A stretch of DNA of 59,501 nucleotides from an uncultured Candidatus Saccharibacteria bacterium (GTDB taxonomy: Bacteria; Patescibacteriota; Minisyncoccia; Minisyncoccales; JANBVM01). The position numbers and the translations under genes are program-made. Below the pieces are notes generated by a model, which searched no databases, had not been told where the DNA came from, and worked only from the letters and a program-made list of their open reading frames with translations. Shown here piece by piece: positions 10,064 through 44,544 of the stretch; position 1 is the first letter of the stretch; each line of letters opens with the position of its first letter. The DNA lies in the NCBI GenBank assembly GCA_964493485.1, contig CAZBMQ010000006.1, positions 12,081 to 71,581 of the forward strand, given 5' to 3'.

Positions 10064-10064
10064 T

Positions 10065-10466
10065 GTCCTAGCAGGCCCGTAAGCCGAATTCTGTTTTAGG
10101 TGATCATTTATCTTGGCTTTAAGTTGCCTTAAAGCTCATGCGAACTACTTTTTCCTTCAACAAGCCTTGGCTAGTAGCACCAGTACAGGTACACATTGAG
10201 ATTACCTCAGCTTGTCAAAGGTTTGTTCTTGCACCCGATAAGGATTTAGCCGTTTCACCCCCGAAGTTACCTTCGGGACTTATCCAGGGAAAACCTGGAT
10301 ACTTTGAACCTTTCGGTTCAAAGCGTCTCTGCTCGCACCTCTAGCCTTTAAGCCGAGGGGTGTTACCCCCTATCTTTTTAACCCTTGTAAGAATCCAAGG
10401 AGTGGGTGTTCGGACTTTCCTCCCCCTCGAACCCTTCGAGAAGGCGATCACTCGGCCTACTAGGAC
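10065..10466 (-). ncRNA. rnpB: RNase P RNA (about 402 nt)
   Basis: Minus strand has GAGGAAAGTCCG (CR-I) and ACAGAATTCGGCTTAC (CR-V); P1 is GTCCTAGTAGGC/GCCTGCTAGGAC; three hairpins in the P12-P14 region. Confidence 0.95.
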
Positions 10467-12208: not shown

Positions 12209-14080
12209 ATGAAAAATATCAGGAATTTTATAATCTTCAGCCATATCGACCACGGAAAATCTACCTTAGCGGATAGATTTTTAGAATTAACAAACACTAT
12301 TCCTAAAGAAAAGATGCGTTCTCAGTTTTTGGATATGATGGATTTAGAAAGAGAAAAAGGAATTACTATAAAAATGCAACCTTGCCGGATGATATACCAT
12401 CTTAAAGTTCGAAATTCTAACCCTGGAATTTTAGATAAATCTGAGATCCAAAACTTGAAACAATTTACTGATTCAGATTTGGGATTATCAAGTTCAGAAT
12501 TTATTCTGAATTTGATAGATACTCCAGGCCATGTAGATTTTAATTATGAGGTTTCAAGAAGCTTAGCTGCAGTAGAAGGAGGAATCTTATTAGTAGATGC
12601 CACAAAAGGAGTGCAGGCTCAGACTCTGGCTAATTTAGATTTAGCTGAGAAAGAAAAATTGGTAATAATACCAGCTGTGAATAAAATTGATTTACCACAC
12701 GCTAGAATTGAAGAAACAAAAGCTGAGATAGCAGAGCTGTTAAAGGTTTCAAAAGATGAGATTTTTGCAATTTCAGCAAAGAACGGAACAAATGTACAAA
12801 GTCTTCTGGAGGAAGTAATAAGAAAGATTCCCCCTCCTAAAGGAGATGATAACAAACCCTTAAGAGCTTTGGTTTTCGACTCAAAATACGATGCTTTTAA
12901 AGGAGTAATTATATATGTAAGGCTGTTTGATGGAAGAGTAAGGGCTGCAGACATGATTTATTTAATGCAAGCTGGCATTGAAACAAAGATAAAAGAGGTG
13001 GGATATTTTGCTCCTACCCTGAACCAATGTCAGGAGCTAAAGGCAGGAGAAATAGGATATATAGCTACAGGTATTAAAGAGCCTTCAAAGATAAGGGTAG
13101 GAGAAACAATTACATTTACTAGAACAAAGGACATGGTTAAACCTCTCTCTGGCTACAAGACTCCAAAACCAATGGTTTTTGCTTCAATTTATCCTGAGAA
13201 TCCTGATGATTTTGATCTTTTGAAAGATGCTTTAAATAAACTAAAACTTAATGACGCTTCTTTGATATTTGAAAGAGAAACAAAAGAATTCTTAGGTAGA
13301 GGTTTCAAATGTGGTTTTTTAGGTTCTTTGCACGCTGAGATAGTTTGTGAAAGACTGAAAAGAGAATTTGGGTTAAATTTAATAATCTCCACCCCATCTG
13401 TAATTTATAAGGTAATTGATAAAAAAGATAGAGAAGACTTAATTTTTTCTGCTTCTGACTGGCCAGATATGAGCTATATCAAAGAGGTAAGAGAACCTTG
13501 GGTCAGATTAGAGATTATAACCCCAGTTGATTATTTGGGTGGAGTATTAGATCTTTTGAAACAGCAGGAAGCAAAACATATTGAAGATAAATACTTAACC
13601 CAAGAAAGATTGTTATTGGTTTATGAGGCTCCTTTAAGAAAGATAATTGTTGGTTTTTTTGACAAGCTTAAAGGAATAAGCCAGGGATTTGCATCAATGA
13701 ATTATGAGTTTTTAGGATACAGAACAGGTGATTTAGTGAAGCTTGATATTTTAATTGCAGGCAGAAAAGAAGATGCTTTTTCAAAAATTGTAGACAGAAA
13801 AGAAGCGTTTAAAGAAGGAAAGAAAATTGTTACAAAACTTAAAGAGATATTACCAGCTCAACTTTTTTCAGTACCAATTCAAGCTGCAATTTCCGGGAAG
13901 ATTATAGCAAGAGAGACAATAAAGGCAAGAAGAAGAGATGTAACAGCTCCTCTTTATGGAGGAGATGTGACAAGAAAAATGAAGTTATTAGAGAGACAGA
14001 AAAGAGGCAAGAAAAAGCTGAAAGAAAAAGGAAGGGTTGTTATTCCTTCCAAGGTATTTTTGGAAATGTTTAAAAGTTGA
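12209..14080 (+). CDS. lepA: Elongation factor 4 (LepA) with an insertion of about 25-30 aa in the G domain
   Basis: SHIDHGKSTLADR, NLIDTPGHVDF, NKID, GFLGSLH and GGDVTRKMKLLERQK. Confidence 0.97.
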   Translation: MKNIRNFIIFSHIDHGKSTLADRFLELTNTIPKEKMRSQFLDMMDLEREKGITIKMQPCRMIYHLKVRNSNPGILDKSEIQNLKQFTDSDLGLSSSEFILNLIDTPGHVDFNYEVSRSLAAVEGGILLVDATKGVQAQTLANLDLAEKEKLVIIPAVNKIDLPHARIEETKAEIAELLKVSKDEIFAISAKNGTNVQSLLEEVIRKIPPPKGDDNKPLRALVFDSKYDAFKGVIIYVRLFDGRVRAADMIYLMQAGIETKIKEVGYFAPTLNQCQELKAGEIGYIATGIKEPSKIRVGETITFTRTKDMVKPLSGYKTPKPMVFASIYPENPDDFDLLKDALNKLKLNDASLIFERETKEFLGRGFKCGFLGSLHAEIVCERLKREFGLNLIISTPSVIYKVIDKKDREDLIFSASDWPDMSYIKEVREPWVRLEIITPVDYLGGVLDLLKQQEAKHIEDKYLTQERLLLVYEAPLRKIIVGFFDKLKGISQGFASMNYEFLGYRTGDLVKLDILIAGRKEDAFSKIVDRKEAFKEGKKIVTKLKEILPAQLFSVPIQAAISGKIIARETIKARRRDVTAPLYGGDVTRKMKLLERQKRGKKKLKEKGRVVIPSKVFLEMFKS

Positions 14081-14217
14081 AAATTAATAAAAACTTTATT
14101 ACCATCTAAACATAGGAAGTATCATAAGGGTGATTGTGCTGAAAATCACAATACAAACAAGAATAATCCATATAGCTCGAGATATTTTTTTCACTACAGT
14201 TTTCTTCATATAGATAT

Positions 14218-14628
14218 ATGGTAGCAAAAGTTAAAAAATATAAAAAGATTAGACTGAAAAGCGATGTAATTTTCCAAGCTATATTCTTGGGTGTCACCCT
14301 ATTTTTAATTATAATTTTAATAGTTTCTAATTTCAAAATCAGCAAGAAGAGAGCTGCGTTGATGAAGAGGATAGAGTCTTTAAAAGAAGAGATTCAAGAG
14401 TTAGAGCAAGAAAAACAAAAATTAGAGGCAGGAATTTCTCAGACAGGGAAAGAAAGTCATTGGGAGGAAAAGATGAGGGAGCAAGGTTACATCAAAGAAG
14501 GAGAAAATCCTGTGGTGGTGATACCACCTGCAGAAACTCAGAAAGAGGAGATCCCGAAAGAACAAAACTTTTCTCAAAAGCTATTAGATAAAATCAAAGA
14601 TTTATTTGCGAGAGTAATTCAGTGGTAG
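14218..14628 (+). CDS. Septum formation initiator (FtsB/DivIC-like)
   Basis: Short basic N-term, one TM, coiled coil, EEKMREQGYIKEGE motif; last 21 nt lie inside tRNA-Gly. Confidence 0.7.
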   Translation: MVAKVKKYKKIRLKSDVIFQAIFLGVTLFLIIILIVSNFKISKKRAALMKRIESLKEEIQELEQEKQKLEAGISQTGKESHWEEKMREQGYIKEGENPVVVIPPAETQKEEIPKEQNFSQKLLDKIKDLFARVIQW

Positions 14629-14679
14629 AATGCATCCTTCCCAAGGATGACGTCGCGGGTTCGAATCCCGTCTCTCGCT
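14608..14679 (+). tRNA. tRNA-Gly (CCC), CCA not encoded
   Basis: Full cloverleaf: GCGAGAG/CTCTCGC acceptor, CATCC-TTCCCAA-GGATG anticodon arm, TTCGAAT T-loop. Confidence 0.95.
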
Positions 14680-14728
14680 CAGAGATAATCATTAATTTCT
14701 TGATAAAACTTGTTCAATAATTTGTCTT

Positions 14729-14800
14729 GCCGAGGTAGCTCAATGGTAGAGCAACGGTGTCGTAAACCGTTGGTTGGAGGTTCAAATCCTCTCCTCGGCT
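14729..14800 (+). tRNA. tRNA-Thr (CGT), CCA not encoded
   Basis: GCCGAGG/CCTCGGC acceptor; ACGGT-GTCGTAA-ACCGT anticodon arm. Confidence 0.93.
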
Positions 14801-14888
14801 CATATGTGTTCTTTTAGAACACTTTAATTTTTATAGGTTTTATTATATAATCGGGTATAATCGGGTTAGAATAAAAAGCGAGAGTGAA

Positions 14889-15963
14889 ATGGAGAAAACA
14901 GAAGATATTTTTGAAAAGAAAGAAGAATTGAAAAGAAAACTCCTCAATCTTGAGGACTGTCTTTGACATTGAAAAAAAGAAGGAAAGGGTCAAGGAGTTA
15001 GAAAAAAAGATGCAGAATCCTGGATTTTGGCAGAACAAAGAAAAGGCGGTTGCTTTTTCTCGGGAGTTTAATTATTTAAAGGAACAAATAGAGAATATTG
15101 AAAAGTTAAAAAAGAGAATAGAGAACATAAAGGGTCAAAAGGAAATTAATGAATTAGAGAAAGAAATAAGAAAAAGAGAGATAGAGATATTTTTTGCTGG
15201 TAAATATGATAATGGAGATGCCATTTTATCGATTCATGCAGGAGCTGGGGGTCAAGATGCTCAGGACTGGGCAACTATGTTGTTGAGAATGTATGAGAGA
15301 TATTGTCAGAAAAAAGGCTTTGAGACCAATATTTTACATCAGTCGTTCGGAGAAGGAGGGGGTCCTGAAGGAAGAATCGGAACAAAATCTGTAACTTTAG
15401 AGATTAAAGGCTCATTTGCTTTTGGTTTTTTGAAAAAAGAAAACGGGGTTCATAGATTAGTCAGAATCTCTCCTTTTTCGCCCAAAAAGCTGCGTCACAC
15501 CTCATTCGCTTTGGTAGAGGTAATGCCGAAGATTCAGGATTTATCCCAAGAAGACATTGAGGTAAATCCAGAAGATTTAAAGATTGAATTTTTTAGAGCT
15601 TCGGGGCCTGGAGGTCAATATGTTAATAAAAGAGAAACAGCTGTAAGAATAACACATATACCTACAGGGATTGCAGCTTCTTGTCAGTCAGAGAGGTCCC
15701 AAGCTCAAAATAGAAAAAAGGCAATGGAATTGCTGTATTCTAGGCTTTACAGCTTTTACCAAAAGGAACAGAAAAAAGAGATTTCAAAGATAAAAGGAAA
15801 AAAGGTATCAGCCAGCTGGGGAAATCAAATAAGAAGTTATGTATTACATCCTTATAAGCTGGTGAAAGACCTGAGAACAGGAGTTGAAGAGGGAGATATC
15901 GAAAAGGTGTTAGATGGAGAAATAGATAAATTTATTGAAGCTGAAATTAGACATAATGATTAA
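14889..15963 (+). CDS. prfB: Peptide chain release factor 2 with programmed +1 frameshift (about 357 aa)
   Basis: 25-codon first ORF ending CTT TGA C (14961-14967); the +1 frame carries SPF (RISPFS) and GGQ motifs. Confidence 0.96.
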
Positions 15964-16711: not shown

Positions 16712-17620
16712 ATGTTTACATTGTTAAGGAGAATAATAAGATCAGGATGGCAGAGTTTTCGACGTGATGGAGAAATCGCAGTAGCAACTATTTTTGTTCT
16801 TTTCTTGGCAGTAATGTTGGTTAGCGTTCTTTATCTTTTTAGAGATGTTGCCCATTCTTTGGTTGAAAATATCCAGGAAAGAATTGATATCTCTGTTTAT
16901 TTTAAAGAGGATGTAGCAGAGGCAGATATATTAGAGATAAAAAAAGAAATCTTTAGGTTTCCTGAAGTAAAAGAAGTAGAATATGTCTCTAAAGATCAGG
17001 CTTTGGAAGATTTTATTGTAAGGCATGAGCAGGATTCTATTTTGTTGGAGTCAATTGAGGAAGTAGGGAGAAATCCTTTTCTTGCTTCTTTGAATATAAA
17101 AGCTTGGGATCCCAGTCAGTACGAAAAAGTATCTGAATTTTTGAAGAATCCAGAATTTGAAGATGTGATTGAGAAGATTGATTATTATCAAAGGAAACTG
17201 ATTATTGAAAGAATATGTTCACTTAATTCTATAATATCTAAAACAGGCATGATTTTATCCGTTATTTTAATAGCAGTAGCTGTTGCAGTAACCTTTAACA
17301 CAATCAGATTATCTATCTACAACTCAAGGAAAGAGATTAAAGTGCAGAGACTTGTTGGGGCTTCTAACTGGTTTATTCGAGGACCATTTATAGTGCAGGG
17401 GATAATCTGCGGACTTTTAGCAGCGTTGATTTCTCTTTTACTTTTGACTTTGACTTGTAAGTTTGTTAGTACGAAAACTGAAAATTTCTTTTTTGATTTA
17501 GATGTTTATTCTTTATTTATCAAGAATTTTTGGACTATTGTGACAATTCAGATAATTACTGGTATTGGACTTGGTATAGTTTCAAGCAGTATTGCTATTC
17601 GGAAATATTTAAAGATTTAA
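16712..17620 (+). CDS. ftsX: Cell division permease FtsX
   Basis: Four-TM FtsX topology; VEYVSKDQAL, NTIRLSIY, LVGASNWFIRGPF. Confidence 0.93.
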   Translation: MFTLLRRIIRSGWQSFRRDGEIAVATIFVLFLAVMLVSVLYLFRDVAHSLVENIQERIDISVYFKEDVAEADILEIKKEIFRFPEVKEVEYVSKDQALEDFIVRHEQDSILLESIEEVGRNPFLASLNIKAWDPSQYEKVSEFLKNPEFEDVIEKIDYYQRKLIIERICSLNSIISKTGMILSVILIAVAVAVTFNTIRLSIYNSRKEIKVQRLVGASNWFIRGPFIVQGIICGLLAALISLLLLTLTCKFVSTKTENFFFDLDVYSLFIKNFWTIVTIQIITGIGLGIVSSSIAIRKYLKI

Positions 17621-17632
17621 AATCTTTAAAAT

Positions 17633-17706
17633 TGCGGGGTCGTCTAATGGTAGGACGCTAGGTTCTGGCCCTGGTAATCTAGGTTCGAGTCCTAGCCCCG
17701 CAGCCA
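17633..17706 (+). tRNA. tRNA-Gln (CTG), CCA encoded
   Basis: TGCGGGG/CCCCGCA acceptor, CTAGG-TTCTGGC-CCTGG anticodon arm, G73 then CCA. Confidence 0.93.
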
Positions 17707-43681: not shown

Positions 43682-44131
43682 ATGGTGACTATTGATCAAA
43701 TAAAAGAATTAAGAAATAAAACAGGAGTTTCCATAGGAGAATGTAAAAAAGCTTTAGAAGAAGCGAATGGGGATATGCAGAAAGCTGAAGAGATTTTAAA
43801 AAAAGCAGGCCAGGAGTTTGCTCAAAAGAGGTTAAATAGAGAAACAAAAGAAGGTATTATTGATAGTTATATACATACTGGAAGAAAAGTAGGAGTAATG
43901 ATTGAATTGAATTGCGAATCAGATTTCGTAGCTCGTTCTGAAGATTTTAAAAAATTAGCTCATGAATTATGTCTCCAGATTGCTGCATTGCCCGCAAAAG
44001 ACAAAGAGGATCTTTTAGAGCAGGTATGGATAAAGGACCAATCGAAAACAGTGAAAGATTTAATTAATGGTTATATTGCAAAATTTGGAGAAAATATTAC
44101 TCTCAAGCGGTTTGTCAGGTATGAGCTTTAA
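43682..44131 (+). CDS. tsf: Elongation factor Ts, very short form (149 aa)
   Basis: IKELRNKTG...CKKALEE, ELNCESDFVAR, GENI..KRF; start moved to ATG 43682. Confidence 0.93.
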   Translation: MVTIDQIKELRNKTGVSIGECKKALEEANGDMQKAEEILKKAGQEFAQKRLNRETKEGIIDSYIHTGRKVGVMIELNCESDFVARSEDFKKLAHELCLQIAALPAKDKEDLLEQVWIKDQSKTVKDLINGYIAKFGENITLKRFVRYEL

Positions 44132-44471
44132 AATAGTAGCCTTATTCATTTTATTTGGAAGTTCTCTTGGTTTAGGAGGGATTATTATTAGTAAAATTCC
44201 TGCTTTGTGTTCTTTGCCAGAGACAATTTTTGAGGAAGATAGGGGAGTAGCTTTGAGAATAAAGACAAGAGTAAAAAAATTAAATCCCTTAAAGAGGTTT
44301 TCTTATGATATTTTTTTGCAGAAGGTTTTGACAAAAATAAGGATTTTATCTTTGAAAACAGACACTAAGACATTTAATTTACTTCAGAAATTAAGAGAAA
44401 ATAATCAAAGAAAAAAAATAAAAGAAGATGAGAATTATTGGGATAAGATAAAAAAAGCCACAAAGGGATGA
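44121..44471 (+). CDS. Hypothetical protein with N-terminal TM helix (116 aa)
   Basis: ATG 44121 overlaps the tsf end; hydrophobic N-term and basic C-term; stop 1 nt before tRNA-Thr. Confidence 0.6.
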   Translation: MSFKIVALFILFGSSLGLGGIIISKIPALCSLPETIFEEDRGVALRIKTRVKKLNPLKRFSYDIFLQKVLTKIRILSLKTDTKTFNLLQKLRENNQRKKIKEDENYWDKIKKATKG

Positions 44472-44472
44472 T

Positions 44473-44544
44473 GCCGGTGTAGCTCAGTGGCAGAGCAACG
44501 GTTTTGTAAACCGTAGGGCGTGAGTTCAAATCTCACCACCGGCT
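44473..44544 (+). tRNA. tRNA-Thr (TGT), CCA not encoded
   Basis: GCCGGTG/CACCGGC acceptor; ACGGT-TTTGTAA-ACCGT anticodon arm. Confidence 0.95.

Follow-up and report, generated by a model that had tools for sequence, protein, structure and literature searches.

A divIC gene that ends inside tRNA-Gly(CCC) in an ultra-small bacterium: a recurrent overlap that would make tRNA maturation produce a non-stop message

We analysed a stretch of 59,501 nucleotides (nt), referred to as the window, from an uncultured Candidatus Saccharibacteria bacterium (GenBank assembly GCA_964493485.1, contig CAZBMQ010000006.1, positions 12,081 to 71,581 of the forward strand), in which a gene of the divIC/ftsB family runs into the gene for tRNA-Gly(CCC). 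The overlap is confirmed as genuine: lacking a stop codon of its own, divIC finishes inside a working tRNA-Gly gene. The genome comprises 857 kb in 26 contigs, and by the source names of the DivIC homologues the organism belongs among Candidatus Nealsonbacteria / Paceibacterales. We propose, with a probability of roughly 0.6, that divIC, tRNA-Gly(CCC) and the tRNA-Thr gene that follows are one transcription unit, that cleavage by ribonuclease P (RNase P) would leave a non-stop divIC message, and that the overlap represents tolerated tight packing and no dedicated switch. The elements at the junction are the following (window coordinates):

14218..14628, + strand: divIC/ftsB-family gene (septum formation initiator), 136 amino acids (aa), from the list of open reading frames (ORFs); its stop codon lies within the tRNA
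14608..14680, + strand: tRNA-Gly(CCC), found by ARAGORN; Rfam tRNA match of 67.0 bits at 14608..14679
14608..14628, + strand: 21-nt overlap, in which the codons A-R-V-I-Q-W-stop are tRNA nt 1-21
14626..14628, + strand: TAG stop codon of divIC, in the tRNA D-loop (tRNA nt 19-21)

The overlap reads GCG AGA GTA ATT CAG TGG TAG and is preceded by the codons GAT TTA TTT, so that the protein ends ...KDLFARVIQW before the TAG. The part of the tRNA that is overlapped comprises the 5' acceptor strand, the D-stem and the D-loop. The triplet at 14626..14628 is the first in-frame stop, with none before it. An earlier note on this DNA, made from the letters alone, had read the junction in this way; the ORF list, ARAGORN and Rfam agree with its assignment of the codons to tRNA nt 1-21 and of the stop to the D-loop TAG, and the ORF list agrees that no earlier in-frame stop exists. 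The ORF at 14218-14628 is a true DivIC/FtsB-family gene. Its product matches Pfam PF04977 with 35.2 bits (cut-off 28.9), residues 24-103 corresponding to profile positions 5-79/80, and the translation, inspected by eye, has a hydrophobic segment around residues 17-38 and a heptad-like region rich in E, K and L around residues 45-75. Contigs from two further runs span the junction with 0 differences (run X2 over 14100-14900, run X4 over 14352-14687), and the overlap is therefore no assembly error. The contig of run X1 is identical too, but X1 is possibly the origin of the window DNA itself. A search of sequencing runs for this DNA found seven DNA runs that contain it and not a single RNA run.

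A DivIC homologue is present in 36 of the 41 related genomes searched. We examined 30 loci from related genomes, 29 of which matched the protein and 27 of which have tRNA-Gly(CCC) downstream on the same strand; among these 27 there are four overlaps, of which three have the 21 nt of the window and the fourth has 10 nt. A genome search at the level of the family added nothing, as the family consists of 15 genomes that were all already in the set. A further 100 loci were collected from metagenome and genome collections, searched with an alignment of 16 homologues. After removal of 16 exact duplicates, one locus without a match (L030), three that run off the contig (L103, L109 and L138) and one distant non-relative (L140), 109 non-redundant loci were left, and the next co-oriented tRNA is tRNA-Gly(CCC) in 100 of them. 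The divIC stop lies inside the tRNA in 30 of these 100 loci, with overlap lengths of 10, 11, 21 or 42 nt, and the junctions are distributed as follows:

Overlap of 42 nt: 12 of 100 loci; tails such as AGLVEWFNATFPR, the frame passing through the anticodon loop
Overlap of 21 nt: 7 of 100 loci; tails ARVIQW or ARVIQR
Overlap of 10-11 nt: 11 of 100 loci; stop at tRNA nt 8-10
Gap of 0-10 nt: 32 of 100 loci
Gap of 11-30 nt: 21 of 100 loci
Gap of 31-100 nt: 11 of 100 loci
Gap of more than 100 nt: 6 of 100 loci

The 21-nt overlap of the window recurs in six other non-redundant loci (L003, L004, L041, L042, L083 and L104), and together with the share of overlapped loci this recurrence argues that the overlap exceeds chance. 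Grouping the loci by 90% identity of the DivIC core gives 83 clusters, 24 of which hold an overlap, and the 21-nt overlap persists between proteins that are only 42-65% identical. Four sequence types of tRNA-Gly(CCC) are overlapped, in five junction configurations: 21 nt or 10 nt for type 0, 42 nt for type 1, 10-11 nt for type 4 and 10 nt for type 6. The tRNA type of the window is thus also overlapped by 10 nt, in another frame, in 7 loci. Among 28 protein-database clusters, 17 end in ARVIQW or ARIIQW, 3 in ARVIQ, 7 in tails of the AGLVE type and 1 otherwise. The earlier note had proposed a comparison of orthologous loci, and had allowed that orthologues stopping before the tRNA would point to a recent stop loss or a sequencing error. 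The nearest relatives share the overlap, which is neither private to this genome nor recent. The W that ends the ARVIQW tail derives from the invariant GG of the tRNA. Across the order, DivIC orthologues without an overlap mostly end in F or W directly before the tRNA (for example L012, L015, L018, L022-L024 and L029).

The overlapped tRNAs are real tRNAs under structural selection. In the 30 overlapped tRNAs (26 distinct), 99.5% of 546 cells are standard cloverleaf pairs, and both-sided (compensatory) changes are found in 11 of the 21 cloverleaf pairs. In the control for pairing and covariation, 0 of 500 shuffles and no slid register approach the observed values. For the tRNA-Gly(CCC) of the window, the cloverleaf is the minimum-energy fold even when 60 nt of the upstream message are included. 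An RNA switch was dropped as a candidate, since the fold of the junction shows no structure that competes with the cloverleaf.

The gene order divIC, tRNA-Gly, tRNA-Thr is kept across the order. The elements that would delimit the transcription unit in the window are:

14077-14105 and 14139-14167, + strand: two promoter-like sites, 9/12 each, between lepA and divIC (consensus pattern scan)
14729..14801, + strand: tRNA-Thr(CGT), the second tRNA of the presumed unit (ARAGORN; Rfam 70.1 bits)
14806..14832, + strand: terminator-like hairpin and T-run directly after tRNA-Thr, with a 7-base-pair stem and a 3-nt loop (consensus match)

These two promoter-like sites are the sole + strand matches within 13800-15200; the pattern scan of this interval detected no + strand promoter-like site inside divIC, and a pattern scan detected no terminator between divIC and tRNA-Gly. 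A promoter of the tRNA's own, inside the coding sequence, had been named in the earlier note as one finding that would speak against its proposal. In the 80 nt before tRNA-Gly(CCC), the best sigma-70-like match scores 6/12, which equals background in this consensus scan of a group whose own promoters are uncharacterised. For comparison, 2000 random genome windows score 6.9 on average, and 206 of the 2000 reach a score of at least 9. A score of at least 9 is found before 11 of the 33 other tRNAs, at sites that end 8-44 nt before the tRNA, and before 1 of the 13 tRNAs that abut a coding sequence. The exception is tRNA-Leu(CAA) after topA, where a promoter-like site of 10/12 lies within the upstream gene. 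These scores suggest that free-standing tRNA genes have recognisable promoters and that tRNA-Gly(CCC) has none that can be seen, although consensus matches are not proof.

The enzymes on which the proposed chain of events relies are encoded in the genome. The RNase P RNA gene lies in the window itself:

10064..10463, - strand: RNase P RNA gene (RF00010, 131.5 bits; G000:C6:22144-22543)

It is situated only 4 kb upstream of tRNA-Gly(CCC), its expected substrate. The gene for the RNase P protein, RnpA, was detected in the genome as well. The transfer-messenger RNA (tmRNA) gene, which ARAGORN missed, was found with Rfam (115 bits) and adjoins smpB. The genome has only two genes with an RF-1 domain, prfA and prfB, and hence no ArfB; the tmRNA-SmpB pair appears to be the only ribosome-rescue system detected in the genome. 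ARAGORN finds 46 tRNA genes, among which tRNA-Gly(CCC) is single-copy, with Gly-GCC and Gly-TCC encoded elsewhere.

We hypothesize that the transcription unit runs from the promoter-like sites upstream of divIC to the hairpin and T-run after tRNA-Thr. An ancestral divIC stop at the border of the tRNA would have been lost, with translation continuing to the UAG in the D-loop and adding the six residues ARVIQW. Because the stop lies in the tRNA and no terminator intervenes, any message that bears the stop contains the whole tRNA, and full-length DivIC would be made only from transcripts that RNase P has yet to cut. With the TAG in its A site, a ribosome spans about nt 1-33 of the tRNA and so keeps the acceptor and D arms from forming until it leaves. 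Once the ribosome has gone, the tRNA would fold and RNase P would cut at 14607/14608. The upstream RNA would then end ...UUA UUU, with neither a stop codon nor a protecting 3' structure. Any ribosome left on this RNA would come to a halt at its 3' end and depend on tmRNA-SmpB, and the RNA itself would be broken down. Where relatives have gaps of 0-10 nt, the cut would likewise end the life of the message, by analogy with secG of Escherichia coli. As the cut would end the message in either case, a stop that moves into the tRNA would cost little extra, and this small cost would allow overlaps to be gained and lost repeatedly. The claim of the earlier note that tRNA maturation makes a non-stop mRNA thus holds in its premises (no stop of its own, RNase P RNA and protein, tmRNA, SmpB, and no tRNA promoter seen), while the cleavage itself is predicted.

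Gain and loss of overlaps is what the junctions of the relatives suggest. We computed a FastTree phylogeny from the C-terminal part of LepA, the DivIC core (last 16 residues removed) and PrfB, with 105 rows, many of them partly filled. Junction states are intermixed on this tree, with at least 30 changes over seven labels; the 21-nt state requires 5 changes, 3 of which are forced by well-supported branches, and the 42-nt and 10-11-nt states require 7 changes each. Near-identical divIC genes are followed by two different tRNA-Gly types and accordingly receive a 6-aa or a 13-aa tail. L085 and L093 have identical divIC 3' parts and the same joining base, with a type-1 tRNA (42-nt overlap) in L085 and a type-0 tRNA in L093. 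In comparison with L087 and L085, L084 and L093 contain a 70-nt insert within the 3' end of divIC, 23 nt before the tRNA. The insert has 14-nt terminal inverted repeats and resembles a miniature inverted-repeat transposable element (MITE); with its new 20-residue tail (DPVRN...) and a stop that precedes the tRNA by 28 nt, it abolishes the overlap. The DPVRN tail is also observed in L062/L077, L064/L066 and L079/L080, once after the first 12 nt of a tRNA.

A different route is visible where the tRNA has been exchanged and the overlapped letters have stayed behind in the gene. L044, L047 and L049 keep the 21 nt unchanged (21/21) as pure coding sequence, and three different, complete tRNA-Gly(CCC) types follow 3-17 nt after the remnant. 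In L002, the closest genome (protein 65% identical), the remnant differs at two positions, both synonymously, and 20 nt further on lies a tRNA of a fourth type. The tRNA-Gly(CCC) alleles have thus been swapped at this locus, at least four sequence types following the same 21-nt coding remnant. More diverged remnants are found in L013, L009, L043/45/46 and L078, with non-synonymous changes in L013 and L078, and L050 contains the remnant of one tRNA type followed by a 10-nt overlap with a new tRNA. In L078, about 115 nt lie between the divIC stop and the intact tRNA-Gly. Behind the remnant tail ARLIQ and its stop comes a 5' half of another tRNA-Gly type, whose anticodon arm is broken by about 35 nt, and the intact tRNA-Gly further on belongs to a third type, an arrangement suggestive of serial replacement. 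A 5' half-tRNA is likewise left upstream of the tRNA-Gly of L020. These sequences indicate that overlapped ancestors were 'resolved' several times, by tRNA replacement or by insertion, and that overlaps arose in several frames. Site-specific integration was considered as the cause of the tRNA turnover and is not supported: the remnants are 5' pieces, which does not fit the usual integration of mobile elements at the 3' end, and differences in the new tRNAs are found at their 5' as well as their 3' ends.

Tight packing against tRNAs is found throughout the genome. Fourteen ORFs of at least 100 aa end between -17 and +21 nt of the start of a co-oriented tRNA. A Pfam scan of ten of these gave nine positive housekeeping genes (topoisomerase I, an M48 peptidase with a gap of 0, a nucleotidyl transferase, FtsH, L19, a HAD hydrolase, DnaJ, DnaX and FtsX), which together with DivIC and a methyltransferase makes 11 Pfam-positive ORFs that end at or inside a tRNA; outside the scan are a 134-aa ORF that precedes tRNA-Thr(TGT) and an ORF of doubtful status within the rRNA operon. 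Around a quarter of the 46 tRNA genes begin 0-17 nt after the stop of a co-oriented housekeeping gene. Two further junctions in the window, and the second overlap of the genome, which lies outside it, are:

16712-17620: FtsX, before tRNA-Gln at 17633
44067-44471: 134-aa ORF, before tRNA-Thr(TGT) at 44473
G000:C7:43158-43920: S-adenosylmethionine (SAM)-dependent methyltransferase (L141, 259-957), overlapping tRNA-Arg(CCG) (948-1021)

The methyltransferase (232 aa; Methyltransf_11, 76 bits) ends ...EKPL before a TAG, and the last 10 nt of its ORF are nt 1-10 of tRNA-Arg(CCG). In all, 2 of the 46 tRNAs are overlapped. The tRNAs that abut a coding sequence are mostly without promoter-like sites and the free-standing ones often have good ones, a layout that resembles tRNA punctuation. 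In animal mitochondria, tRNAs abut or overlap protein genes, their excision sets the ends of the mRNAs, and polyadenylation completes partial stop codons. The closely spaced quarter of the tRNAs in our genome is reminiscent of that arrangement. Unlike the mitochondrial messages, the cut divIC RNA, ending ...UUA UUU, would offer no partial stop to complete, and a stop codon completed by polyadenylation was rejected on this ground.

Overlaps of this kind and the mechanism that we propose are already in print as hypotheses, and divIC is an unusually recurrent example of them. Overlaps of coding sequences with co-oriented tRNA or tmRNA (t(m)RNA) genes have been put forward as candidate high-frequency non-stop mRNAs (Hudson, Lau & Williams 2014; PMC4131195). 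The available part of that survey of 2031 genomes gives 250 overlaps by an upstream coding sequence per 115,660 t(m)RNA genes, the top case being the FtsW/RodA/SpoVE family with tRNA-Ile(CAT) in Helicobacter, with 44 cases (PMC4131195); DivIC/tRNA-Gly(CCC) and ultra-small bacteria are not named in it. The divIC junction is of the same kind, a functional, Pfam-positive coding sequence upstream on the same strand whose stop codon lies within a valid tRNA gene, and the non-stop mRNA was predicted there as well. In contrast to the rarity in the survey, we find overlaps in 2 of 46 tRNAs and in 30 of 100 orthologous loci, in several frames, a comparison that is indicative given the different methods. 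Our literature searches yielded no publication that describes divIC with tRNA-Gly(CCC) or reports this layout for the Candidate Phyla Radiation.

Two other systems are close to the divIC junction. In one, selB overlaps selC, or selC is nested in selB, in Alphaproteobacteria, Gammaproteobacteria and Nitrospirae, with partial overlaps, tRNA remnants in selB, loss of the overlap in some lineages and a non-stop model given as a hypothesis (Mukai 2021; PMC8124441). The divIC loci share with selB-selC the C-terminal extension that is translated tRNA, the stops in mid-tRNA, the remnants in the ORF and the loss of the overlap in relatives. SelB, however, binds tRNA-Sec, which provides a rationale for stoichiometric control, whereas DivIC and tRNA-Gly have no known link; moreover, unlike in selB-selC as described there, the tRNA allele at the divIC locus has been swapped repeatedly and the protein tail changes along with it. 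In E. coli secG-leuU, RNase P cuts once, 14 nt beyond the stop codon, and the secG mRNA then decays with a half-life below 30 s (Mohanty & Kushner 2008; PMC2241853). The divIC unit resembles this arrangement in that an mRNA precedes a tRNA on a presumed shared transcript with an RNase P site in between, where cleavage is predicted; in consensus scans no promoter lies between the gene and the tRNA, and a terminator-like hairpin follows the tRNAs. The difference is that the cut in E. coli leaves the stop on the mRNA, whereas the divIC stop, at tRNA nt 19-21, would be removed.

Several observations weigh against tolerated packing with a non-stop message. A non-consensus promoter may exist inside divIC, the promoters of the group being uncharacterised, and co-transcription, cleavage, the non-stop fate with tagging, and translation of the tail are all steps that we infer. 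The persistence of the 21-nt overlap across proteins of 42-65% identity could mean maintenance and not mere tolerance. Likewise, the coding remnants in L002, L044, L047 and L049 hint that the tail or its stop is under selection and thus not entirely neutral. The tree was quickly made and many of its data are missing, so that the counts of changes are rough.

One alternative is that the overlap is purpose-built, such that DivIC synthesis and the maturation of tRNA-Gly and tRNA-Thr exclude each other and RNase P cleavage with tmRNA tagging sets the level of DivIC. All the parts needed for this (RNase P RNA and protein, tmRNA and SmpB) are encoded, the overlap is old in some lineages, with the same 21 nt down to 42% protein identity, and the same logic was proposed for selB-selC (PMC8124441). 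The commonest overlap between a coding sequence and a tRNA in the 2014 survey, FtsW/tRNA-Ile in Helicobacter, involves a division protein too (PMC4131195). However, 70 of the 100 related loci have no overlap, and close relatives differ in their state. The lengths and frames of the overlaps vary (10, 11, 21 and 42 nt), as expected from where a tRNA offers a stop. Unrelated housekeeping genes show the same packing against tRNAs, and DivIC and tRNA-Gly(CCC) lack a functional link. We consider such a device unlikely. The earlier note had suggested a purposeful coupling of tRNA processing to the turnover of a division protein, and this suggestion fares poorly against states that flip among close relatives, tails that vary, and housekeeping genes that are packed alike. 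We see only a small chance for the bolder view that tRNAs in Nealsonbacteria and their relatives are routinely matured from the 3' ends of ordinary messages, as a bacterial parallel to tRNA punctuation in mitochondria, that RNase P and tmRNA throttle DivIC according to the state of tRNA processing and translation, and that the re-created overlaps reflect selection for a stop beyond the RNase P site.

It is similarly improbable, in our view, that the read-through transcript remains mostly uncut, with the tRNA serving as a stable 3' structure, and that mature tRNA-Gly comes from a non-consensus promoter inside divIC, in which case few non-stop messages would arise. The uncharacterised promoters of the group leave room for this explanation, and the 10/12 site in topA before tRNA-Leu(CAA) indicates that internal promoters occur in the genome. 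Against it, the best match before tRNA-Gly(CCC) is no better than background (6/12), and an insert of 70 nt, placed 23 nt before the tRNA, is tolerated in relatives. In its context the tRNA has the cloverleaf as its minimum-energy fold, with no visible shield from RNase P, and a message that bears the stop must include tRNA nt 1-21 and, for want of a terminator, the rest of the tRNA.

Less probable still is a role of the tRNA-derived tail in the protein, such as contact of its C-terminus with FtsL or FtsQ-type partners, a role that would explain why the overlap or its 21-nt remnant persists. After tRNA replacement the remnants retain just the 21 coding nt (plus 1-3 nt), the changes in L002 being synonymous; 17 of the 28 protein clusters end in ARVIQW or ARIIQW, and many non-overlapping orthologues end in an aromatic residue. 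Yet near-identical DivIC proteins carry ARVIQW, the 13-aa tail of another tRNA type or the 20-aa tail encoded by the insert. Where an overlap exists, the tRNA dictates the letters in any case, and the sample of diverged remnants is tiny and includes non-synonymous changes in L013 and L078.

An artefact (an error of sequencing or assembly, a pseudogene or a different genetic code) is very nearly excluded, no point having been found in its favour, by the identical contigs from two further runs, the overlap in other genomes and metagenomes, the conserved and intact core of the gene, and a reading frame that is open under table 11 regardless of the code, with TGA used as a stop. The latter follows from the gene that adjoins the divIC-tRNA unit:

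14890-15963: prfB, encoding release factor 2 (RF2)

Near 14950, prfB contains CTT TGA C, which we take to be the usual +1 frameshift site, and this site implies that TGA is a stop codon in the organism. Two TATAAT boxes lie at about 14846-14866, just upstream of prfB.

Tolerated packing with a non-stop message is thus the reading that we prefer, and to the published hypotheses the divIC loci add the frequency of the overlap (30 of 100 loci), tails dictated by a tRNA, and the routes by which overlaps are resolved. The C-terminus of the protein is dictated by whichever tRNA allele lies downstream, and this dependence is undone by replacement of the tRNA, which leaves a coding remnant, or by small inserts. 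The junctions are relevant to gene callers, which often forbid overlaps between coding sequences and tRNAs. If the proposed chain holds, each RNase P cut at tRNA-Gly would generate a non-stop message of a division gene, and the divIC transcript would be a natural, conserved and frequent substrate of ribosome rescue. RNase P may define many mRNA 3' ends in these ultra-small bacteria.

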